Shown in pieces: positions 5,466 to 62,570 of a stretch of 64,000 nt of DNA. The translations under genes were made by a program, and so were the position numbers. Source of the DNA: Octopus vulgaris. Lineage: Eukaryota. Where the stretch lies: positions 93,496,001 to 93,560,000 of the forward strand of contig OX597814.1 in the NCBI GenBank assembly GCA_951406725.2. Direction: 5' to 3'. The notes beneath the pieces are model-generated. The model searched no databases. It had not been told where the DNA came from and saw only the letters and a program-made list of their open reading frames with translations. Within the stretch, counting starts at the first letter, position 1. Every line of letters begins with the position of its first letter.

Positions 5466-5481
5466 ATCATTAAACAGATAC

Positions 5482-5667
5482 ACAGTTCTATATTCAAGAG
5501 ATGAGGAGTTATGTACATTATTTACATTATTTACATTTGACAAATATTTGTCCTCATCTTGTTTATTGTTAACACAACGTTTCAGCTGATATACCCCCCA
5601 GCCTTCATCAGGTGTCTTGGCGAAATTTCGAACCTGGGTTCTCATTCCTAAGGTATTTATCGATGTC

Positions 5668-5752
<85 letters not shown>

Positions 5753-5821
5753 TCACTGCCTAGAATCAAACTCAGAATCATGGGGTTAGTAGCCCACGCT
5801 CTTAACCACTACGCCATATGC
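5482..5821 (-). mobile_element. SINE-like unit: tRNA-like head + (AAT)n + hammerhead-containing tail (complete copy)
   Basis: Minus strand: 73-nt tRNA-like head (5821-5749), (AAT)n, tail with HHR at 5616-5571, ending ...aatatagaactgt at 5482. Confidence 0.7.
5571..5616 (-). ncRNA. Minimal type-I hammerhead ribozyme
   Basis: Minus strand: GACAC-CUGAUGA-A-GGCUG-(10 nt)-CAGCU-GAAA-CG-UU|GUGUU. Stems I and II pair and stem III is the palindrome ACGU. Predicted cut between 5576 and 5575. Confidence 0.8.
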
Positions 5822-5896
5822 TCACAGGCATATGGTGTAGTGGTTAAGAGCGTGGGCTACTAACCCCATGATTCTGAGTTTGATTCTAGGCAGTGA

Positions 5897-5900
<4 letters not shown>
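5749..5900. repeat. Near-perfect 73-bp inverted repeat of a tRNA-derived (Pol III promoter-like) head
   Basis: Arms 5749-5821 and 5828-5900 differ at one position. A-box-like TGGTGTAGTGG, B-box-like GAGTTTGATTC, anticodon-loop-like CT-ACT-AA. Confidence 0.9.
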
Positions 5901-5968
<68 letters not shown>

Positions 5969-6032
5969 TAATAATAATAATAATAATGATAATAATAATG
6001 ATAATAATAATAATAATAATGATAATAATAAT

Positions 6033-6221
<189 letters not shown>

Positions 6222-6308
6222 AATAATAATAATAATAGTAATAATAACAACAACAACAACATTGAAAAATACCTTAGGAATGAGAACCCAGATTCAAAAT
6301 TTCCCCAA

Positions 6309-6354
6309 GACATCTGATGAAGGCTGGAGGGTATATCAGCCGAAAAGTTGTGTT
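6309..6354 (+). ncRNA. Minimal type-I hammerhead ribozyme (stem III palindrome broken)
   Basis: GACAU-CUGAUGA-A-GGCUG-(10 nt)-CAGCC-GAAA-AG-UU|GUGUU. Core intact. A C>A change turns ACGU into AAGU. Confidence 0.7.
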
Positions 6355-6496
6355 AACAATAAACAATATAAGGACAAATATCCGTCAAATGTAAATAATG
6401 TGAAAAGATACACGTCTCTTATTTTTTACACTTTTATTTTCTCTTTTTTCTAAAAATATTTTTGACCGCTTCCAGAAATTTCTCACTTTTATTTCT

Positions 6497-6752
6497 CTCG
6501 AAGCAATTCAGGAATTTCAAGGTTTTCGAATTTCTGATTATGAAGGTTTTCGAATTTCGTAATATGGTTTTCGAATTTCGGAATATGAAGGCTTTCGAAT
6601 TTGGGAATTTGAAGGTTTTCGAATTTCGGAATGTGCAGGTTTTTCGAATTTTGTAATTTGAAGGTTAATGAATTTCGGAATTTGACGGCTTTTGAATGTC
6701 AGCATTTGATGGTTTTCGAATTTCAGAACTTGAAGGTTTTCGAATTTCAAGA
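6497..6752. repeat. 24-bp minisatellite, about 10-11 copies
   Basis: Unit about gaaggttttcgaatttcggaattt. Gives the KVFEFRNM periodicity in the ORF track. Confidence 0.85.
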
Positions 6753-8729
6753 TTTCTGATAACGGAATGCCAACTGCATTTGTATAAAGCTTGTGTTGGT
6801 CACTTGCTGTTTAGAGAAGATTGTATGTGGCCTCTCGAGCTGATAGAATTAATAGCCGAAGCTCATTTAAATCCAAAACTAATCTAATACTACCGACGTA
6901 CAAAAAAAAAATACGAGACGGTCATGGCGTGAATGCTTAGTTAGGGGTGTGTTGGGTGGGAAGGTGAGTTTTTGGCTCGAAGACGATGACGACGATGATG
7001 ACGATGACGGCCACCACCACCACCACCACCACCACCACCACCACCACCACCACCACCACAACCGCCACCGCCGCCACCGCTAACAACAGTAGTAAGAATG
7101 CCTGTACCCGGTTGTATTACTTTCTAGCAACAGCAGCCAAATCTTTCTCCAATCACACTCTACAATCTTCTTTTAAAAAGGACTCATTGGATAATGCAGT
7201 CCTAAATGCATTTAATTTGAATAAAAGGTTGGGCAATAATAGCTGGAATACATTTGGTCGTTGGTCTGCTCGATCCAGCTATCCTGGAGCTAAACAACGG
7301 CAACAGCAGTAGTAACAACAACAACAATAGGAGCGTCAGCCACGACGACAGCAAGAAGGTTTTATATAATCATATGAAGCTTAACACAATTCATCAGGAT
7401 GAGAAGAAGGAATTCCCTGTCTCTCTCTCCTACCCTCTCCTCTCCTCTCCTCTTTTCTCTTCTTCTCTCTTTCTTTCCACACTCTTTCTCATTCGCGCTT
7501 ACATACATACATGCACACACCCGCACTAAAATAGGCCGTTATACGTCTAACTCTCAAATATGGTCACTAGAATTCCGTGAAAAAAAAATTACTTGATGAT
7601 GATGATTGTTATAAAGAAGCATAGTCATTATACATAGTGTGAAGTTTGCACAGAAAGGATGGAAGCATTCAGTATAAATGGTATATCTCCCAGAATTTGG
7701 CGTTTTATCCTCCACACTCTCTCAGTCTTTTATTTTTTGTGTGCATATATGTGTATATACAGATACACACACACATACACATATATAAATGTAAATGAAT
7801 AGTCATTTTTGTTCAATTCATGCTACGTACGTTTCGGCAGCTGGGGAATTTATTTACGCACCATATGTTACTTAATATAATCTGAAATTACATAACTTAC
7901 TTTACACAATATGCTTTATAACCATTTATCTCGGTTCAGGAATCTTGAACTGTTGGCAGTTAGATCGGTCCACAAGTAACTCATTCTACAAGAAAACCGA
8001 TCTCTAGCATTGCTCTTAATATTGGGATTACAACATTATTGTGGAACATGATGTTACTTAAATTTCAATTTCTTTAGTTTTCTATCATCGCTGTATCTTC
8101 GGGACCAAGCATAGTTCAGAAAATAAAAAGAGTAGGCCGAGTGAGAATATGTGATCATTATTTATTTAATTTTTGTTGAAAATTCCTTATTATTTAACAC
8201 GCTGATGATGTCATAAATAAGAATAGTATATTAATTTTCGTAGTTATGCATAAATTTCATAAGAGAGTTATTATAACCCAGTATTTTTGCAAAACTTAGA
8301 GAAATGTAATTGCCAATGAATATTTACAGCAGGATAACGAATTTGTAAAAAAAACAAAGCACCTTTTCATGAAGATAACCCATTCTGTCTCTATGTAACC
8401 CCCCCACACACACGCAACCATGCGATGGGCTTCCACACAATTCCCGTTCACCAAAACACTTATAAGGCATTGGTCAATTTTGGGCTATAGTAGAACGTAT
8501 TTACCCAAAGTACCGAAAAGCATATATATATAAGTTCGTTTCTGTTTTTGTTTTTATGTTTTCGTTTCTCATTGTGTTCAACATTTTTTTGATGTCTTGT
8601 ACCCATATATGCATGCATATATACATATACATGTAGGTATGTACATATATGTATGTATATATGCATATATTTATATATTATTTATATCATTATATGATCG
8701 AACACCACGCATCCTTTTCCAAGTAAGTT

Positions 8730-15057: not shown

Positions 15058-15430
15058 TATTACAAACAACTTTCTTTGAAACAGAAATATGTCAATGCTG
15101 TAGATTAATACATATTTTGATAATAATTCTGCCCATCCCTTGCCAAGCCAGAGAATGAGCCGGTCGAGGAACTCCTAGAGTTTGCTTAGTCCACTATACA
15201 AGCTGGTAAATCAGGTCCAAAAGTGCCGCCATGGTCGAACGGCGGCCTCGCATCCTCACCTCTAAGATACGTAGCCGTAACCATCAAGACTGACCTCGGG
15301 ATAATCAACCGCTATAACAACAAACACGTAAAGGCAGGCACAGTCGACTAACTACAAATAGCGGCGATATCATCAATACAATCACGCTTTATCATGTAGG
15401 TAGCACATAGTTTCGTCAAATGATATATTA

Positions 15431-15672
15431 AGGTGGCGAGCTGGCAGAAACGTTAGCCCGTCGGGCGAAATGCGTAGCCGTATTTCGTCTGCTGTTACGT
15501 TCTGAGTTCAAATTCCGCCGAGGTGGACTTTGCCTTTCATTTTTTCGGGGTCGATAAATTAAGTACCAGTTACGCACTGGGGTCGATATAATCGACTTAA
15601 TCGGTTTGTCTGTCCTTGTTTAGCCCCTCTGTGTTTAGCCCCTTATGGGTAGTAAAGAAATAGATATATTTC
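15431..15672 (+). mobile_element. tRNA-derived SINE, family A
   Basis: ggtggcgagctggcagaa head, B-box GAGTTCAAATTC, central gactttgcctttcat..tcggggtcgataaattaagtaccag. Many homologues in the window. Confidence 0.85.
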
Positions 15673-15724
15673 ACGTGAATAAAAGAAAGCAAGATCACTA
15701 CTAAAACTCTTTTTGATCATAGTT

Positions 15725-15900
15725 TTATTCGTTCATTTGAAGATACACCATCTGACTGCGGTTATGCTGGAGCACCGCCTTTATTCTTTGTAAGCCTAAT
15801 ACTTGTTCTATCGGTAATTTTTCCCGAACCGCTAGCTTACGGGTGCGTAAACACACCAACATCGGTTGGCAAGCAATAATGGGGGACAAGCATAGACACA
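15725..15900 (-). mobile_element. SINE family B, 3' half
   Basis: gactgcggttatgctggagcaccgcctt...cgtaaacacaccaacatcggttg is the reverse complement of the family B tail. Confidence 0.7.
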
Positions 15901-16136
15901 CGCGCGCGCGCACACACACACATAGTTGAGACAGACAAACTTATTTAAATATTAATTTATGTAGTCACACAATACCTCAGACTCATTTGCATACATAGAA
16001 AGACTATTCCCACCTTAATATCTTCTATTATAATTATAATGAATATTAATCATAGTTACTTAAACACATGCAATTATTTGGAAATACTTATACGCAATAT
16101 CTCATGACTACTAATAAGCGAATAGTACAAAGACGC

Positions 16137-16216
<80 letters not shown>

Positions 16217-16339
16217 GCCTGTCTGTCTGTCTGTCTAGATAATGGGTATCTATATGTATGCGTATTATACAGTATTATGATAAGCTCCCTTATAACGTGA
16301 GAATAAATATACATACGCATATATATACATATATATAAA

Positions 16340-18640
16340 CAGATACATAATGGCTTAAGCCCGATTTTGAGTGATGTTTTCACTGGCTTGCTCTCTTAAA
16401 CATGGGGAGCACGAATGTGGCTTTTCAGTCCAGCTACAAACTTAAAACTCTTGTGCGCAGATATGGCAACGATGGCTGCCTCTTACAGTAGGTGTTATAG
16501 TATTGTTTTGGCGAACCTTTACATGACAGTTCAGTCCGCTTCTAGTACACATTCTTTGCTACACTCTCTGCAAGTAGAGATGCCGTACAATGAACAGGTA
16601 AGAAGTTCTCGGTGTCTGGCCATACTCTTTTACATGTTGAATCGGGCGCTATGCCAACATACTGAGATAAATCAACATCAAGTCACTTACGAACACTTCT
16701 CTCTCTCTCTCTTGAATTTTTCATACTCGATACGATTTCGCTCGAATTTCTTCCTCCCATCATGAATTTCTTCCTCCCATAGCAAAGTTTTTCTATCCAT
16801 TTCCCAAGATTTGGCCTTCTCCAGTGTGTTCTTGATACTATTCTTATAACTTAATTTTGGTTTGTGCTTTGGTTTTTTATTTTGGGCTAAATCAACATAC
16901 AGAAACTATTTGGGGGATCTGATCATCTTTCACCTTGACCACATAACTATTCCATCGTAATCGGTGCTCAATTACTAGAGACTATATACTGGAAAACTGA
17001 TTGTATTCGAGGACTCCAGCGCCACTAATATACATTTGCCATAAGATATCCAATAAACGGCGTCAAAAATATTTCTGTCTTTATATTTCATTTGTTTCAC
17101 TTACTGGACTAGGCTATAGCAGAAGACACTTGCCCAAGGTGCCACACAGCGAACTGAATACAAAACCGCGTATTTGCGAAGCGAATCTCTTAACCACACA
17201 GTCACGTTTGGTGAAATTGCTCCAGTCTTTTCATGTCTCTCGTAACTCACGTTTCACATGCATATACCAACAAAAAGTTAAACACAAGAATTCTAGACAT
17301 TTAGCTTTGTCTCATTTAAAACTCTATGCCGAGACCATAAACGTCTATCAAATTTTCCGAATGAATCACCGACTTTCTTGATTCGGAAGGTCTCATCATC
17401 AGGAGTATTTGTCATGCCTAAATATACATGAAGCACTTTTTGTCTACTCACATAAGTTTTGGCTCAGATTTAGCTTCATCTGGTGCAGATTGGTGCACTA
17501 AGATTGACATTTTAGGCTGTTGGTTAGACCCAGTGCACAGCATGGTGTCGGGGAGGAGGCCAAAAGAAGCTGCATGTCACTCTGGGAGTGAGCAAAAAGA
17601 TCACAATCGTCAGTATGTAGGAAATACGAATTTATGCATTAGTGATGACAACAGATTTGTTATGGTAGGAAACCGTTTTATATTCAATATTCTACCAATT
17701 TTTCAGTATCTGGTCCCATGCAAGAAATCTTCAACAGCCATCAAACAAACTATAGCAAAGTGCAATGCCAGCAGATTTGGCACTGGTATCTTCCCTTCTT
17801 TAACACCATTTTCAGCCAAAATTTGATTAGAGAGCTTTCCACCCATGTTGATACATGTTTTCATTCCATCACGGAAACATCTAAGCAATTAGACAGACTC
17901 ACTACAATACCTTGCCTCTTCGGAATGCTACATTAAGAATTTCCACTTGCGGTATCAAAAGCCATAGTCAGATTAACATTAGCTTGACACATAGTACATA
18001 GCTTGACACAGGTACATCTGCTTAATTCCTTTTTCCTGTAGTTTCCAAATAGTAACGATCATATCTGCTGTACCATGTTATTCATGAAATCACACTGAAA
18101 CTCAGGAAGGACCTCGTTAGCGATGCCTTTTAAAAATCTGCCCAGCCTGATCATACACAACACATTGTCTACAGCGGAGATATTCCACAGTAAATCCAGC
18201 AGTCATCCTCCCCACCTTTCTGTTTATAGAGAACTATCATCAGCGCATCTTTCCAATGACTTGAGACGCTCTCTTCAATCCAAATATTTTGCATTTATTT
18301 CGCCGTTGAAGTAGTTTTCACTTCCACATTTCAAGGTCTCACAAGAGAATGCATCTAATCCAGACGACTCACCACTATTTAGCTTTTTGCCGCCATTTTA
18401 GCTTCAAGGAAAAGAGTTTCTACCATGCGTTCTGTTGTAAGCATGCTGAGAATCAATCCAACAAATTCATTATCAACATTTAAAGGCTCATTTAAAGATC
18501 GTTAAAATGTTCTCTGCATCAGACAGGAATATCCTTAGAATCTATGAGCAATTTCTTTCCTTTCAGAGTACGAAGAGGAGCAACAGAAGAGGAAGATGGC
18601 ACACAAACTTCCTATAACTAGTTATACAGATGCTTCGTAT
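16340..18640 (-). pseudogene. Decayed RTE-clade LINE (RT and C-terminal C2H2-like fingers), interrupted by a SINE at about 17085-17205
   Basis: Minus-strand peptides RDGMKTCINMGGKLS...NGVKEGKIPVPNLL (RT GVKQG-like), HRLRW...DDQIP, and CRECSKEC / ICAQEF..LKSH-like fingers. Many stops and frameshifts. Confidence 0.75.
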
Positions 18641-18724
18641 AGTTGGAATCAGATAAAACGATGACGACGATAAGAACAACAACAACAACAGTAGCAGCAA
18701 TAGTAATAGTAGTAGTAGTAGTAG

Positions 18725-19172
<448 letters not shown>

Positions 19173-19192
19173 GTATTATTATTATTATTATT

Positions 19193-20370
19193 CAGTAGTT
19201 TTATTTTTATAGCGTGCTTTCACTTCACTACCGAGCGCAGCTCTGTGTGCCTTGGGTATGTGCTGTGATTTGTTGTGATGCTCTGATGGTTATTGTATGG
19301 AAAGTGTTCTGCGTAGGATGTGTGCAGTGCCTAGTAGTGCAATTTTCTGTATGTTATATGTGTTTGTAAGTCCTGGTGGTTTTGTTATGTATTTGTCTGA
19401 ATATTTTTTTATCATGCCTAATGCACCTACTATGATAGGAATTGTTTCTGTTTTCAGGTTCCACATTCTAGTTATCTCTATTTCCAGGTCTTTGTATTTT
19501 GAGAGTTTCTCCATTTCTTTTAGAGACACGTTGTCATCTGCCGGTATTGATACATCAATTAGAAAGCATTTTTTTCTTCATGATCTCTGACAACTATATC
19601 TGGTCTGTTGGCCTTAATTTCTCTATCTGTGTGTATCGGCATATCCCAGAGTATGGTTGCTTTCTCGTTTTCTGTGACCTTTTCTGGTGTGTGCCTATAC
19701 CATCTTTTTTTCTGTTGTTATTCCATAATGTTGGCATAGCTTCCTATGTATGTAGGTTCCAACTCTGTCATATCTGTGAATATATTCCTTCTTAGCCAGG
19801 ACTGGGCAGCTAGAGATAATATGATTTATTGTTTCTTGTCCATCTCCACATATTCTGCAGTTACTTGTAATATTTCTTTTCATTACATGTTTTTGGTAAT
19901 TTCTGGTGGGGAGGCTTTGGTCTTGTGCTGCAATTAAAAATCCCTCTGTTTCTGCTTTGAGTCCTGAGCTTCTCAACCATTGCTGGGATTTTTCTTTGTC
20001 TATTTCTTTTGCGTTTAGTTTAGTGCAGTATTTACCATGAAGGGGCTTTTCTTGCCATCGTTTTATCATGGCTCGTTGCTGTTCTATTTTAGTTTGGATT
20101 TCATTTGTTTTATAGCTTTTGTTGTTTCTTCATCATCTTCTTCTTCTTCTTTGTGTTTATTAGGTGGTATGATTTCTTGTTTGTATTTGTCAGCTTCCTT
20201 AAATACTGAGAACAGTTTTTTGTTTTGCTCGTGTTTTGCTGCTATCTGGATCAGTTTTCCTTCCTTCTGAAGTAGGTATTTTTGCAGTCCTATGGTGGTT
20301 ATTTTATAGTAGTTTTCCAGCTGTATAAGGCCTCTACCACCTTCTATACGTTGTATATATAGTCTTTTAC
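19193..20370 (-). mobile_element. 5'-truncated R4/Dong-clade non-LTR retrotransposon (RLE type) in (TAA)n
   Basis: Frameshifted ORF: RLYIQRIEGGRGL (RT end), LKAETEGFLIAAQDQ, CRICGDGQETINHIISSC (CCHC), HRYDRV, then EKLSKYKDLEIEI..IPIIVGALG (RLE). Stop at 19290, 3' UTR to 19193. (TAA)n on both flanks. Confidence 0.9.
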
Positions 20371-20434
<64 letters not shown>

Positions 20435-20467
20435 TGAAGTAGTAGTAGTAGTGATAATAATAATATT

Positions 20468-20501
<34 letters not shown>

Positions 20502-20611
20502 GTAATAATAATAATAATAATAATAGCTGGACCCGTGAAAAATTCACGGAAAACAAAAAATGTACGCATCTTTAAACAATACACTGTTGCCATGAGAAAT
20601 GTTTGTATATT

Positions 20612-20765
20612 ATGACCGTCTATCTTTACGTTCTGAGTTCAAATTCTGCCGAGATCGACTTTGCCTTTCCTCCTTTCGGGGTCGATAAATTAAGTATCGG
20701 TTATGTACTGGGGTCGATCTAATCAACTGACCTCCTCCCCACAAAAGTTTCAGGCCTAGAAAAGT
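20612..20765 (+). mobile_element. SINE family A, 5'-truncated
   Basis: tacgttctgagttcaaattctgccgagatcgactttgcc...ggggtcgat. Confidence 0.75.
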
Positions 20766-22200
20766 ATACTGTAATAGTTACAGAATATAGAAAGTAATGT
20801 AACACCAATGACTATGTAATCCAACCAAAATATCTCAGTTTCAAAAACATAAACGGAATTATTATTTATCCTTAAAATACATCGTACATATTCAAAGAAC
20901 CTTAATGTACAAATTGAAATGCAAAAGAACAAATAATAAATAGATTTATGAATGAAAGTTTGGTAATTGCGTTTATTTCCACCACGCGACACTTATTGCA
21001 AACATGTTTAACTAACCTAAACTATACACACGCACAAATACATTCATATATATGTATATATATGCCTAGAGTTGTAGCTGTAATTCTGTGTGAGGCTGAA
21101 TTTCCATGTGAAGAACGTTAATGTTACTCTTGTCAGTGGAGTACTCAGCCAGTTGTGAGTTAATTTTATCGTCGTGTGGTAATGAAAAGTGAAATTGACA
21201 GCCAATATTTGCTGATTTTTGTATCTAAGAACTTTTCTTTGTATCTACTGTCTTCTCACTTTCTATCTTTCTCTTTCACTTCCTTTGTGTCCCTCTCTCT
21301 CCCGTTTTTTATTTAACAATGTGTTTATGTATCTATGTATCAACTTCTCTTCCGATGTGATAAACATTTAAAAACACAAAACGAACGCCGTCACTACTCA
21401 CCGGCTCTTTCACACTCTCTCTTTCTCTCTCACCTTTTCTCTCTTTCACTCTCTTTCTTTCTCTCTTACATCCTCTCTGAAACATTTAAAAGTGCCGTCG
21501 CCACTCACTGTCTCTTTTTCACTCTCTCACTTTCTCTCTCTCCCTTTCTCTCTCTCTTTCTCACTCTCTCTCTCTTCCTTCCTCTCTGTCTCCTTCTCTC
21601 TCGCTTTGTCACTTCTTTGTAGTAAGTGTGACGCACACAACAGGTACGTGCAAAAACAAAAAGTTAGCGTATTAATATTATTGATAATATATTGTTAATA
21701 AAACTGCCGTGAAATACATCCATTCCACGTGTTTTATTATCTGTGTGTTTCTCTCAAAGTAACAGTATTTGTTTCAAAACATTTTCACACAAAGAATTTT
21801 GTCAAATACAAAAACTACATACATATATGCATACAATCTCCAACATTCTCTCTTTCTGACACACACGCCCTTGCGCGCATACACAAACACATATACAGTA
21901 AATGATTACTAACGGTAGAATTCGAAGTAGATAAAGTTCTAAATTATAATATACAGAATATTGGGCTACCTGGATATATGACTTTTCTTTCCATTCGAGA
22001 TTCTTTGGGGCCAATATTCTACCTTTTACTATTTACAGTTTTATCATCTTCGAGTTACACCGATAAAACAATTTGTTTCCGATCTTACAAAGTTTCTATG
22101 AGACAATAGAATGTAACCCCCCCACATACACACATGCACACACGCAGACACGCATATAGAAACTTGTATGTTTGTCTGACTTTCTGTCTGTCTCTTTCTT

Positions 22201-22231
<31 letters not shown>

Positions 22232-22302
22232 GTACGTACGTACATATATATGTATGTAGATATATGTATGTGTGCATACACATATATGTACACAAGAGAA
22301 GC

Positions 22303-22611
22303 TTGGGTGTGTTCTACTATAGCCTGGGGCCGACCAAAGCCTTGTGAGTGGATTTGGTAGACGGAAACTGAAAGAAGCCCATCGTATATATGTATACATG
22401 TATATATGTATATATGTGTGCGTGTTTGTACCGCCAACATCGCTTGACAACCGATGCTGGTGTGTTTACGTCCCCGTAACTTAGCGATTCGGCAAAAGAT
22501 ACTGATAGAATAAGTACAAGGCTAACAAGGAATAAGTCCTGGGGTTGATTTGCTCAACTAAAGGTAGTGCTCCAGCATGTCCACAGTCAAATGGCTGAAA
22601 CAAATAAAAGT
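22303..22611 (+). mobile_element. SINE family B, 5'-truncated
   Basis: High similarity to 27290-27690, including the internal TA/TG tract. Confidence 0.85.
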
Positions 22612-22689
22612 AGCACACTTATTAAGCATGCCGAAATCGCATGGATTGTATGCATTACATGAATCTGTTGCATTCAAACAATAATCAAA

Positions 22690-23090
22690 ATACTCATAAA
22701 GCAGGCGACAAAATTCATTATATAGCAAACCTCTAATAACTAATAGTGTGAAATGCAACAAGGACACTAAAATAAAAAATTTTGTGATCAATATAAACTT
22801 CATAACAAACTACAAATGACGAATGTGATTTGTAAATTCGAAACCAGAAAGTTATGAACTTCTCAATTCCAACAACCCTTTTGCAAATTTCACTCTCTCC
22901 TGTCGATTCACTATGCACTTAAAAAACAAGGAGCAATTGTGATTCTCTATACATCTATACTCCACAGAATTCCAAACAAAAATATTGATTAATGATAGAA
23001 GGAATATGGCTCTTGTTGGTTCATCGTACATTTACAACAAGCAACAATTGTAACGCATTAATCCACACAACCCAAAACTAAATTAAGAAG
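22690..23090 (+). pseudogene. Highly decayed PLE GIY-YIG endonuclease remnant
   Basis: Peptide remnants TNVICKFE, LSCRFTMHL..(Q)GAI and NPKLN appear in the order expected for a PLE GIY-YIG domain. Heavily frameshifted. Confidence 0.4.
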
Positions 23091-23543
23091 AAATATGTTC
23101 GTGGGCAACACATCTATATTCTAAAGGATATAAAATAATAATTGTGACATGAAAAAAACAATAATCATTACACAGCACAATTATAAAATAAACACAAACA
23201 ATATAAACTAGACAACCACAAAATCAAACAGCGGATTGACGATGTATAAACTAATGATCAACATTCAAAATCCTGTGCTAATGTTTACATCAATCACATT
23301 GCCTCTACCGATAATAAAACGGTAGAAACATTACTTCATCATGCAGATGAGACATTGAAGACTTAGGGGATTTTAGGAACTTTTAATGTTCCACACAAAC
23401 TGCGAATAACGCATACGAAAATATGAAAAAAACCTTGGTAAAAAAGATAAAACTCAAACACTCAGTCGTGTTTTCAATATAGCAGACACATTCACTCATA
23501 CCTGTTCATTACACATAAGCTCCTAACCGTACATCCATAAGTG

Positions 23544-23612
<69 letters not shown>

Positions 23613-23930
23613 GTATGTATGTAGGTATGTTTGTATGCATATATGTATGTATGTGCATGAGTGGGGGGGGGGGGCGTTTGTGTGTATGAGTGTATGTGTG
23701 CCAACCTACACACATACTCACACATACATACATACATACATATATATATATATATAATAAATATTAGGGAATAAATCCAAATTTACAGGGAAAAATCAGA
23801 TTTAGGATTAAATCCAATTTTATAGTAAAATATTATATAATATTAATTAGAGACAAATCACTATTTTGCAAAACAAACAGGGAAAGACTTAATCAATACA
23901 TAAAATTTTAATAAAAAGTCAAAAAAACCG

Positions 23931-23973
23931 CCACTACAATTGTTTCTTGTCCTGATCGACAATCTTCAGGTGG
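23931..23973 (-). ncRNA. Minimal type-I hammerhead ribozyme
   Basis: Minus strand: CCAC-CUGAAGA-UUGUC-gaucag-GACAA-GAAA-CAAUUG-UA|GUGG. Stems I and II are fully Watson-Crick, stem III is the palindrome ACAAUUGU, cleavage triplet GUA. Confidence 0.9.
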
Positions 23974-24763
23974 ACTTCCAATCTAAAATATCAATATTTT
24001 AAAATATAAAAAATAATAATTTTAAAATAATTAAAGTATCAATGAAAAAATATAAATATATAATCTATATATAACCTATATATAATCCATATATAATCAA
24101 TATATAAACAATATATAAACTAAAATAAACCTATCAACAATTAAATATAAATATAAATATAAATATAAAACAAAATAAAAATAAAAATAAAAATAAACTA
24201 TATATACACCCATACACATATAACTAATTATATATAACCATATCTAAATACATACACTAAATCGCACACCTATATATATATCCCTATACATACACATAAA
24301 AACGTCTAGGCAACGATAAATAAATAAAATAGCCAAATACTTCAACACAATACTTATTCATACTCCCTCACACACACATACAACCCACATTCATAAATAA
24401 TATACGTATACCCGCTCACACATACATATACAAACATACAGAACTCGATATATACACCAATATATTCACACCCACAACTATACAGATAAATAAATTACGC
24501 AAATAATCCCCCCCACACACACACACCCATTCACACATACATAAACACTCAAAAGCAAAATAAATAATTCTTTGCACTTGTTGATCGAACGTTTTTTTTA
24601 AAAATTATAAATGGAATAATATATAATCAACTTAAATATACAGAATCTACTACAAAACACCAATAAACGATCATAATAAATGAAACCCACATACATATTA
24701 TGATAAAACTCCCCCTACCATACACAATTACACCTATATAGCAAACCCATATACACATTCACT

Positions 24764-24873
24764 AAATGATGTTCGTTTCCAGAGCGGGAATACTTCTTAT
24801 ACATATGTAAGGTTCCTATGGTAACCCCACATATGTACAAAAAACATTCCCGCTCTGGAAACGAACATCATTT
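24764..24873. repeat. Hairpin with perfect 28-bp arms
   Basis: aaatgatgttcgtttccagagcgggaat (24764-24791) pairs with attcccgctctggaaacgaacatcattt (24846-24873). Inner tacatatgt/acatatgta also pairs. Confidence 0.9.
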
Positions 24874-24953
24874 TTTTTGACTTTTTATTAAAATTTTATG
24901 TATTGATTAAGTCTTTCCTTGTTTGTTTTGCAAAATAGTGGTTTGTCTCTAAT

Positions 24954-25029
<76 letters not shown>

Positions 25030-25030
25030 C

Positions 25031-25933
25031 GGTGTTTCATCCTGAAATATAGCGTTTCCCTCCGGAAACAGTTCCGCATCCATAGGATGAATTTGATCCG
25101 ATAAAATGCTTAAGTAGTCTTGAGAATTAATTCTGCCATAAAGAGAAACCATTGGGTCGGCGGATTTCCATGATATAGCTTCCCTCCCGATCACCACAGA
25201 CCTCCTCCATGTTTAACTGTTGGAAAAAGGCAGTCTGAGTCAAATGCTTTTTTTGGATGTCTTCACACGTATACTCGGCCGGTGGTCGGAAATAAGGTAA
25301 AGGATGACTCGTCCGAGAAAATAGCATTTTCCCACTGTTTTTACTCCTCTCTAAACGCTTTGCAACGTTTGTTTTTGGAAGTAGTGGTTTTCTGATTGCA
25401 GTTTTCCCTTGAAATCCGGCTTTGTACAGCTCCCGGCGAATAATTTTTGAGGAAACTGGGTTCTAAAGGTGATCATTAAGCTCTGCAGTAATTTTGGGAG
25501 CTGTACTTTTTTGATCGTTTCTAACAATTCGCATAAGAGTCAGATGGGTCCCCATCTGAAAGTTTTGGTTTTCTTCCGGAGTTTTGTTTCGACGAGGAGG
25601 TTTTTCCCTCTTTCTCAGAGGCTGTCATTACTTTCGAGACAGTATTCCTTGATACACCAAGCATGTCTGCTGTTTTCGTTACTCTAGCGCCTGCCATACG
25701 AGCACCAACAATTTGGCCTTTTTGAAAGACCGATAGATCTGTCATTTTAATGAATCTTATTTACCTTTATCTGATGACATCTGAAAAGAAACATCAATTT
25801 TAGCAAAACATATTAAGGAACGCTTATGATAAATCAAAAACATATAAATAAACAATCTATTGACGGTTTTATAGATATTTCAAAATTATGATGTTATGAT
25901 GCTAGTTGTTTCCATTATTTTGTCCAACCCCTA
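25031..25933 (-). mobile_element. Tc1-like DNA transposon, 5' half (dead transposase)
   Basis: TIR-like (c/t)aggggttggacaaaataatggaaaca next to TA. MTDLSVFQKGQIVGARMAGA...SGRKPKLS (paired-like HTH), FSDES region, ...GRINSQDYLSILSDQIHP..FPEGNAIFQD, where it is truncated. Confidence 0.88.
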
Positions 25934-50457: not shown

Positions 50458-52255
50458 CAGGTCGCTCTTGAGTGCTACTGGTACCATGTAGTCTAGTATA
50501 ACCAGTTACATGGTCGGGTCGTCGGTAACTAAAGTGGCAACCCCACCAGGCTTGCTTGGTGAGGTGGGTGCTTGTTGGACTACCTGCGGGTCAAAATAAG
50601 ACCAGTGAAAGGGCGGAGGAAGTACAGCGTAGTCAACGGCCATTCGACAACGTGTGTTTGTGGACGTGGGTATGAGGTGTTTCTGTGTGTGTGTGTATTG
50701 TATATACTGCATTTTAAACTCTGTGTGTGTGTGTTGTATATATTATATTTCAACCTGTGTGTGTGCACATTGTATATTGTGCTTTAAATTTTATATATTT
50801 TATGTTAATTTTATTCTTAATTTTAGTCAATTTTATCTCATTTAAAAATTGTTTTTCTTATTTTAATATTTAAAAAAAATAAATAGATGAGGGGTGGATA
50901 GAGCTCCTCTGTTTTCCCAAGCCGTGGCGAGGCAATCTATCTAGGAGAAAGTAACTCTGAATTTAAATACTTCACGGTTGCCTTGTAGTTAGCCTTTGGT
51001 TGGCCAAAGACTGGGAGAAGGACACTCTGATATAAAACCTGCGACCGCAAATGCACCCAATGATGTCGACTTGCTCTTCTTTTTGGATCATACTTTGTAG
51101 TTTAGAGAGTGGAAATGATTTCTGTGCAAAACTTTTCCTCACTTTAAAAAGTGTCAAGCACAGGTATTGCTGGAGAGGAAAAGAAATGAACATCTTGTAT
51201 GTACATGGCTGGCCGAAGCTTAAAAAAGAACAACTAAACAATGAAAGTTGATATTGACACTGAAGCAAATGGCAAAAAGTGCCCTGGAACATTTTGTTCT
51301 GTGGTCTGGCCCGGCAGGTATCCCAGTGCCCCACAGCCTCAATCCGGACGTCATCCTGCAATTGTGAGTAAATTCAGGTTAAGATGCAAGCTTAGGAATA
51401 TAGGATGTTGGAATGTTCGAACTTTATTAGACAATGATTGTCTGAAATATCGTCCGGAGAAAAGATCCACGCTTGTTGCAATATGATGTAGATGTTGTAG
51501 CGTTAGCCGAATCAAGATTTCATGGAAGGGGGAGTTTCGTAGAGAAATCTGCAGGGTATCATTTATTTTGGAGCGTTGGAGAGGAGACCTATAAGAGAGA
51601 ACCAGGAGTTGGATTTGCAATCAAAACCACTCTGGTTTCAAAACTTGAGGAACTACCATGTGGTCTTTTTGATCGTTTGATGTCTTTAAGACTTCCATTA
51701 AGAAAAAGTCACTATGCAACACTCATAAGTATATATAGTCCAACTATGAATTCATCAGAGGATGTTAGCAACAAACAAGATGACAATTATCCGTCAAATG
51801 TAAATAATGTGCATAATTCCTCATCTCTTAAATATAGAACTGTAAACTTGCCTTCGATTTATCACTTACAGAGATTATACCCAGTATTTCCCATGATGAC
51901 AAAGCTGTCATTTTGGGTGATTTCAATGCTCGCGTTGGTGCAGATTGGGAGACTTGGGGTGTGTTAAGAAAGCAAGGGATTGGGAGTTCCAACGATAATG
52001 GTTTACTACTGTTACAAATGTGCGTAGAGATGGATTTGTGTGTCATTAATACAATGTTTCAACTAAAGAATAAGTATAAAACGACATAGATGCATCCTGA
52101 TTCTAAGAAAAGGCATATTATAGATTACATCTTCACCAGGAAACGAGATACAAGGTACTTTGCTATTGTACGAGTGATCCGTAGTGCAGAATGCTGGACT
52201 GACCATAGGCTTTTGCGTGCCAAGGTGAATTTTGTTGTTAAGCCTAAGGTTGTAT
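50458..52255 (+). pseudogene. RTE-clade LINE 5' region: 5' UTR and AP-endonuclease pseudogene
   Basis: IGCWNVRTLLD, YDVDVVALAESRF, GVGFAIK, RLMSLRLPL, ISIYSPT, ILGDFNARVG, NDNGLLLL, IDYI, CWTDHRLL. Stops, frameshifts and a 77-81-bp insertion. The 5' boundary is approximate. Confidence 0.92.
51763..51843 (+). mobile_element. Solo insertion of the post-cleavage 3' part of the tRNA-HHR unit
   Basis: tgttagcaacaaacaagatga..atccgtcaaatgtaaataatgtgcataattcctcatctcttaaatatagaactgt matches the reverse complement of 5482-5574. Removing it restores SSEDV-KLAF in the RTE ORF. Confidence 0.85.
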
Positions 52256-61954: not shown

Positions 61955-62570
61955 ATCTACTGAGATGCGTTGGGTGGGCCATGTTGTCCGTATGGAATAT
62001 TATAGGATTTCAAAGCAGCTGCTATACGGTGAGCTGTGTACTGGAAAGCCTTGTCATCACAAACCACAAAACGATACTAAGACTGCATAAAAAGCAACCT
62101 CAAGGAACTGTGAAGAATTAGCTTCAGAAAGAACTGAGTGAAGAAAGAGTATAAGAGATGATTGTAAAACTTTGAAGAGGGTCGATTTGAGCTCGAAGGC
62201 CTAAAGCACTGGCTTCGGAGGGGCTGTCATCAGACCCTCAGTGGGAGCATAAAATGTTGAAAGTGTGAACCGTGTGACCGTGTACTCCTTTCCAAGACTA
62301 GGTATGTCAACTATCTGAAGTCTCATGAAAGATCAATTATATGCAATAACTTTCCTCCTAGGCCAGGTGATTCGATGTGAGTAGCATGTGAAATACCTTG
62401 CAAGTCAATTTCAAGTCTGAAGAGGCATGGAGGTTCACAAGGTTCATTTCTCACAAAGTGATCCACTCACTCCAATGGAAGTCACGACTTTCGTCACTCA
62501 CTGAGGCTTCAAAACATATAGATCTGCAGCGAGACTGAATTGTCATCTACGAGGTCAGAAACAAAATGTC
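61955..62570 (+). pseudogene. RTE-clade LINE 3' end with C2H2-like fingers
   Basis: MRWVGHVVRME..RISKQLLYGEL, DCIKSNLK, CEPCDRVLLSK..YLKSH, CEIPCKS..SLKRH. Confidence 0.85.

Follow-up and report, generated by a model that had tools for sequence, protein, structure and literature searches.

A solo fragment of a hammerhead-bearing repeat interrupts an RTE endonuclease reading frame at 51763-51843 of the 64,000-nucleotide stretch of Octopus vulgaris DNA analysed here (the window; contig OX597814.1). As it stands, this insert is an ordinary truncated retroelement end. We read it, with a probability of about one half, as the 5'-truncated end of a high-copy repeat whose 5' end was set by microhomology with the target, a process that would not need ribozyme cleavage and that may include pausing of the reverse transcriptase at a helix. 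The position of the junction, a few bases past the predicted cut of the hammerhead, is at most a weak indication of ribozyme activity in the animal.

The insert and the frame that it interrupts

The features of this locus, in window coordinates, are as follows.

51391..51766, plus strand: left portion of a decayed RTE-clade LINE endonuclease frame, from its translation and, from 51680 on, tblastn with P0002
51763..51767, plus strand: microhomology at the 5' junction, of which TGTT is certainly common to target and element; 5 letters match as now seen and 6 may have matched in the inferred empty site
51763..51843, plus strand: solo 3'-tail fragment of the hammerhead-bearing repeat, from blastn against 5574-5482 and alignments
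51769..51843, plus strand: unambiguously element-derived part, starting at +8 from the predicted cut, from the sequence and alignment
51844..52251, plus strand: right portion of the RTE endonuclease frame, 84% identical to P0001 over 136 residues, with a weak match to Exo_endo_phos_2

The insert matches the reverse complement of 5574-5482 (blastn, E 1e-17) with 78% identity over 93 columns, a value lowered by one 9-nt and one 3-nt gap, and corresponds to the element from the second base after the predicted cut to its distal 3' terminus. The stops and frameshifts of the left RTE portion fall outside the insert; the right portion has its named homologue, P0001, in Octopus bimaculoides, and its match to Exo_endo_phos_2 lies under the Pfam cut-off. 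In the homologues P0001 (SSED-D-KLAF) and P0002 (PDE-V-KEKF) exactly one codon separates the acidic pair, ED or DE, from the lysine, which implies that the left flank extends to 51766, that the right flank starts at 51844 and that 77 net bases, 51767-51843, were inserted. The flanks rejoin the RTE frame exactly, no target DNA was lost, and the duplication of the target amounts to 1-2 bases at most. A reading with a 5-nt target site duplication was rejected because the right junction is one letter short and its TGT belongs to the terminus of the family itself. The codon between the acidic pair and the lysine encodes valine in P0002, the longer RTE, and aspartate in P0001; if aspartate were ancestral, only about 2 letters of microhomology would remain and the insertion would have cost one target base. 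Other decayed pieces of non-LTR reverse transcriptases lie in the window at 16696-18285 (minus strand) and 61959-62111 (tblastn with P0002).

With positions numbered from the predicted cut, so that 5575 is +1, base +1 of the element, a G, is missing from the insert, where position 51762 is an A. Bases +2 to +6 (51763-51767) are explained equally well as target DNA, +7 (51768) differs from both element and target, and the sequence is unambiguously that of the element only from +8 (51769), so that the 5' end of the insert lies anywhere within +2 to +8. The left flank likewise ends in the four letters of +2 to +5, and the right flank opens with those of +6 and +7. No word common to the empty site and the whole 345-nt element is longer than TGTTAA, of 6 nt, at +2 to +7, exactly where truncation at a microhomology would place the junction; the next-longest shared words have 5 nt. 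The junction also sits at the foot of helix I of the hammerhead (+1 to +5). Proximity to the cut site and the best microhomology coincide here, and this single junction cannot separate run-off at a cleaved end from truncation at a microhomology. The letters +2 to +9 (5567-5574) read as a perfect 8-letter palindrome and might serve in fold-back or self-pairing.

The preliminary description of this DNA had thus been right about an insert of about 80 bp within the RTE endonuclease frame (translation, tblastn and both homologues agree), about the 3' terminus that it shares with the copy at 5482 and about the TGTTA microhomology, and comparison with RTE homologues, along the lines that it proposed, gives a putative empty site. 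Its central point, that the insert starts at the predicted cut itself, is not borne out by the bases at +1 to +8.

The hammerhead repeat and its likely class

The two other copies of the repeat lie together near the start of the window.

5482..5826, minus strand: copy A, with a tRNA-like head, (AAT)n, the hammerhead and a tail reaching the distal terminus
5482..5575, minus strand: predicted 3' cleavage product, 94 nt in copy A, containing a 9-bp hairpin stem and ending in the optional tail of ~33 nt
5571..5616, minus strand: predicted minimal type I hammerhead with an intact core, a palindromic ACGU replacing helix III and a GUU triplet
5834..6401, plus strand: copy B, head-to-head with copy A; its hammerhead, at 6309-6354, has one palindrome letter changed

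Three copies of the tail are therefore present in the window (copy A, copy B and the insert), where shuffled sequences give 0.00-0.01. Copies A and B both extend to the head and form a head-to-head inverted pair, with 98.7% identity between the arms over 153 nt; copy B apparently ends at the proximal terminus, near 6401. The arms of this pair (5482-6401) have private variants in common and would form a long hairpin. The (AAT)n of copy B holds a second, unrelated piece of ~70 bp (about 6035-6118), perhaps the 3' end of a microsatellite-targeting LINE, and a degenerate tandem repeat of ~22 bp units follows copy B directly at 6510-6760.

In both copies the predicted hammerhead has a stem I of 5 bp, a stem II of 6 bp and an intact core, and the predicted cut of copy A falls between 5576 and 5575. 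Searches of Rfam gave no match to a hammerhead and, up to E 10, none to a tRNA; the missing hammerhead match would be expected for a form without helix III. Matches to Rfam miRNA families at 5788-5861 were discounted, as they merely reflect the inverted pair. The folding z-scores of the hammerhead and of the tail were not significant (tail z -1.1). Among the variants listed for the family, those at the core places 5583, 5609 and 5610 make up about 8% of the DNA depth or less, and the predicted catalytic core is kept by the majority of the family. A frame of 55 codons is open through the hammerhead and the tail (5481-5645, minus strand). Its end resembles that of two more distant families (P0040-P0044 and family B), all of which stop at one shared motif; this suggests a conserved start signal for reverse transcription or the N-terminus of a Penelope-like element (PLE).

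The repeat is likely the pseudo-LTR (pLTR) of a PLE. Because no reverse transcriptase is linked to it, this identity rests on structural hallmarks of PLE end repeats, namely the minimal hammerhead, the optional tail of ~33 nt and the head-to-head inverted pair, an arrangement also seen in 5 opposite-strand joints among the best 15 of 80. Loose 3' ends of the family fall at 5482/5483 and near 5514, and two such fixed termini point to the optional tail of 30-40 bp described for PLE copies (PMC8557442; PMC3846280), which in the anole element marks two start sites of reverse transcription (PMC11167929). For a reverse transcriptase or GIY-YIG frame, the 55-codon frame had 0 matches among longer proteins, and none of the 34 + 6 further peptide matches (longest 179 aa) continues into a reverse transcriptase. 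ARAGORN found 0 tRNA genes; in the head we noted by eye an A-box-like word and a B-box-like word with one mismatch.

Two other classes fit less well. A tRNA-derived SINE would have a LINE-shared or simple-repeat tail and a target site duplication, and here the 3' end is fixed and non-repetitive and the duplication is 1-2 bases at most. An animal non-LTR retrozyme consists of hammerhead units arranged head to tail, and none of the three window copies is in tandem. Related tandem units occur in family-B peptides from other sources; in P0006, P0007, P0009, P0015, P0019, P0020 and P0027-P0029, related hammerhead-plus-tail units of ~44 codons (132 nt) are joined head to tail as retrozyme-like tandems.

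End points across the family and the origin of the 5' junction

Four sequencing runs, from at most four studies, one of which may have supplied the window itself, were used: the DNA runs X1, X2 and X4 and the RNA run X24. All three DNA runs also cover the unique flank, so that none is independent evidence with regard to this locus. The family has a very high copy number, with 15,131 to 25,261 contigs per DNA run aligned on 233 bases. Metagenome, viral and prokaryote genome collections, scanned for exact patterns, gave 0 matches each. Loose ends were taken from the best 24 of 990 rows (6 per run), with cut-offs of 55, 80 and 96 contigs and 279 reads. The 3' end of the insert is the commonest terminus of the family, holding the top row in X1, X2 and X4 and the second in X24 (179, 159 and 212 contigs and 576 reads at 5482); a 9-bp repeat variant accounts in part for the rows at 5517-5526. 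The loose ends on the 5' side among these 24 rows, at 5658, 5666 and 5670, lie upstream of the hammerhead, and the predicted cut site is absent from the best 24 of 990 rows in all four runs. Given the cut-offs and the counts at 5482, these rows exclude only a dominant single-base peak at the cut and leave room for a moderate one.

Raw reads of X24 showed no place where many molecules begin or end. Depth across the cut changed by +7.4%, much like the +8.3, +4.6, +3.0, +5.3 and +1.9 in the bins before it and +8.0 and +6.5 in those after it, in a single unstranded library of 150-nt reads, of which about 6 in 100 were read and in which a product of 85-94 nt could be missed. In X1, X2 and X4 the summed depth of contigs steps up by 36 to 40% at 5575/5576, which was rejected as evidence of cleavage because depth also rises beyond the other side of a dip at 5576-5599, and because the sums depend on graph fragmentation and on mismatches of copy A. 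The 20 family-A peptides, spurious peptides predicted on other copies, reach the distal end in 7 cases, diverge past the proximal end in 8, stop at the proximal end in 3 and are unclear in 2. Sequence upstream of the cut is contained in 19 of them, with 1 undecidable, and none of the 20 has a flank joined at the cut in this search, which is biased to long matches.

Two side observations were made on the repeat. On 5482-5672 the RNA run differs by A>G at 36 places and by T>C at 45, compared with 10-16 and 9-13 in the DNA runs, an excess that A-to-I editing of the repeat would give. Part of the repeat also lies within an annotated dystrobrevin beta gene model of Octopus bimaculoides (P0039), probably as an artefact of the model or as an exonised copy.

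Internal skips within other copies, some of which delete parts of the hammerhead region, gave a different picture. Eleven same-strand skips were drawn from the best 15 of 80 joints and the best 12 of 56 filler rows, leaving out two backward jumps, the five opposite-strand joints found among those 15 and one skip with an inverted filler (5558-5625); the left ends of four skips were shifted by hand, as their filler letters continued the element. Six of the 11 break at +2, +6, +7, +9, +11 and +13 (6 of 12 if the inverted filler is counted), and the other five at +35, +37, +38, +48 and -15. This clustering has a P of 2e-4 to 6e-4 for a 13-nt window picked post hoc and of 0.084 for any window. No skip breaks at +1, and the pattern is therefore no better matched by a trimmed run-off than by pausing at helix I or by a weak spot rich in AAC. 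The sharp peak of 5' endpoints at the cut that the preliminary description had looked for was thus met by a divided result: the cut site is among the top six rows in none of the four runs and is marked by no step in the RNA, whereas just over half of the skips break shortly past it.

How far the junction itself speaks for cleavage can be put in numbers. Under random truncation with assumed microhomology weights, a junction in +1 to +7 has a probability of 2-8%, so that cleavage or pausing gains a factor of roughly 5 to 25 from the coincidence. Taking the chance of such a junction as 70% under run-off and 3-15% without cleavage, cleavage would have a posterior of 0.09-0.32 for a 2% share of insertions derived from cleaved RNA, of 0.20-0.55 for 5% and of 0.34-0.72 for 10%; a cleaved-RNA share of 2-5% with a no-cut chance of 3-8% gives 0.15-0.55.

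In the reading that we favour, truncation at a microhomology, the endonuclease of a PLE would have nicked AT-rich DNA inside the dead RTE, and reverse transcription would have started where the optional tail ends, at the distal start site of the element. Some 80 nt further on, the cDNA, on reaching TGTTAA at the foot of helix I, would have annealed to the left flank, which could then prime the second strand. The process may have been aided by pausing at helix I, and cleavage would be allowed and unnecessary. There are precedents for parts of this proposal. An insertion of Pen2 into a non-LTR element of Adineta lacks a target site duplication and has a microhomology at its 5' junction (PMC3846280), and truncated LINEs are reported to join frequently through microhomology (PMC4245944). 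For the anole PLE it is reported that the hammerhead can be dispensed with in vitro, that its mutants inserted normally, that the main substrate is uncleaved RNA and that no RNA reads start or end at the cut (PMC11167929). Minimal hammerheads of metazoans are described as cleaving weakly, and not as monomers (PMC4209133).

The alternative, along the lines of the preliminary description, is that the template was an RNA cut by the hammerhead, probably within a dimer, which kept its start signal for reverse transcription; the cDNA would have run off at the cleaved 5' end and annealed to the flank, with loss of +1. We regard this as possible, and as less probable than truncation without cleavage. 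It would account for a 5' end within +2 to +8 of the cut, rare by chance under the weights given above, and for the six skips at +2 to +13; the intact core in the majority of the family is in keeping with it, and in R2 elements cleavage sets the 5' junction while chance microhomology primes the second strand (PMC3774820), so that a microhomology at the junction is compatible with cleavage. Set against this are the missing +1, the absence of any skip at +1 and the spread of the breaks to +13 over an AAC-rich run, as well as the loose-end rows and the RNA depth. GUU, moreover, is given as lying outside the best triplets (PMC9217987), monomeric minimal hammerheads are described as inactive or weak (PMC4209133), and the anole data reported are negative (PMC11167929). 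The wider proposition, that self-cleavage of Penelope pLTR RNA yields, throughout the family, retrocopies of ~80 nt that are dead on arrival together with template-switch deletions starting just past the cut, appears to us possible and less likely than not.

Two further explanations are less probable still. A longer copy with head, hammerhead and tail could have been inserted first and later have lost the part from the left flank to its internal TGTTAA through microhomology-mediated deletion. The same match of 4-6 nt could guide such an event, other copies do show deletions of the hammerhead region, and copies A and B both reach the head, but two events would be required, and the flanks restore the RTE frame exactly with all of the target DNA kept; we hold it to be improbable. 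The tail could also have been captured at a DNA break, as a patch from RNA or from another genomic copy, without target-primed reverse transcription driven by the element. The microhomology and the lack of a clear target duplication would suit a repair patch; its 3' end, however, falls exactly on the commonest terminus of the family, where a random patch would seldom land, which makes this the least credible of the explanations, and a very improbable one.

Related systems and what the family can tell

The repeat is most similar to the pLTRs of Penelope/Poseidon PLEs (PMC4209133; Poseidon_Ac, PMC11167929). As these are described, the shared traits are an unpaired base before helix II, a long helix II, a short helix I, a remnant of helix III that is palindromic, a pair of 3' termini separated by about 33 nt, a head-to-head arrangement and a frame open through the hammerhead. 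PLE frames overlap their pLTR, and the 55-codon frame may be compared with them. The distance from the cut to the distal terminus is 94 nt in copy A and 85-92 nt in the anole element (computed from 26 and 111-118 nt, PMC11167929). In contrast to these elements, no reverse transcriptase or GIY-YIG frame is linked to the octopus repeat, which differs further in its tRNA-like head and its internal (AAT)n. Neither account (PMC4209133; PMC11167929), in the text available, describes a solo fragment that starts near the cut, and the anole study reports no RNA ends at the cut.

The Pen2 insertion of Adineta vaga (PMC3846280) offers the closest parallel to the event itself: a PLE inserted into a LINE, with no target site duplication, a microhomology at the 5' junction and an optional tail of 31 bp, in a family with solo pLTRs. 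Unlike our insert, the Pen2 copy is a long partial tandem, and hammerheads have 0 occurrences in the available text of that report. With R2 elements bearing HDV-like ribozymes (PMC3774820) the likeness lies in the idea that cleavage defines the 5' junction and that chance microhomology serves in priming. The R2 ribozyme occupies the 5' end of a complete element, and its cleavage was shown in vitro (PMC3774820), whereas cleavage here would discard the head and the ribozyme core, leaving a dead tail of 80 nt. The SINE-like hammerhead retroposons of schistosomes and the animal non-LTR retrozymes (PMC6765202; PMC7229834; bioRxiv 10.64898/2026.07.22.740005) are, as described, likewise short, non-coding and PLE-related, with type I hammerheads, and the Pol III-type head of the schistosome retroposons (PMC6765202; PMC7229834) is a further likeness. 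They occur as head-to-tail tandems releasing monomers or circles, whereas the three window copies are solo or inverted. Among open-licence papers, judged by titles and the openings of abstracts, we found none on PLE copies that start at a hammerhead cut, and the main text of a paper on O. vulgaris repeats (PMC13282606), as far as available, does not treat ribozymes.

A short, 5'-truncated PLE-type end, joined by microhomology and without a target site duplication, is an outcome already known from the accounts of Pen2 (PMC3846280) and of LINEs (PMC4245944). Whether the minimal Penelope hammerheads of animals cut in vivo is an open question, as their cleavage is described as weak in vitro (PMC4209133) and as unneeded for insertion of the anole element (PMC11167929). 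The insert leaves this question unanswered because its junction sits on the best microhomology of the target. A family with thousands of young copies nevertheless makes in vivo cleavage testable from genome sequence alone and, if a class of retrocopies starting at the cut site did exist, the 5' endpoints in the genome would be a fossil read-out of the in vivo activity of minimal PLE hammerheads.
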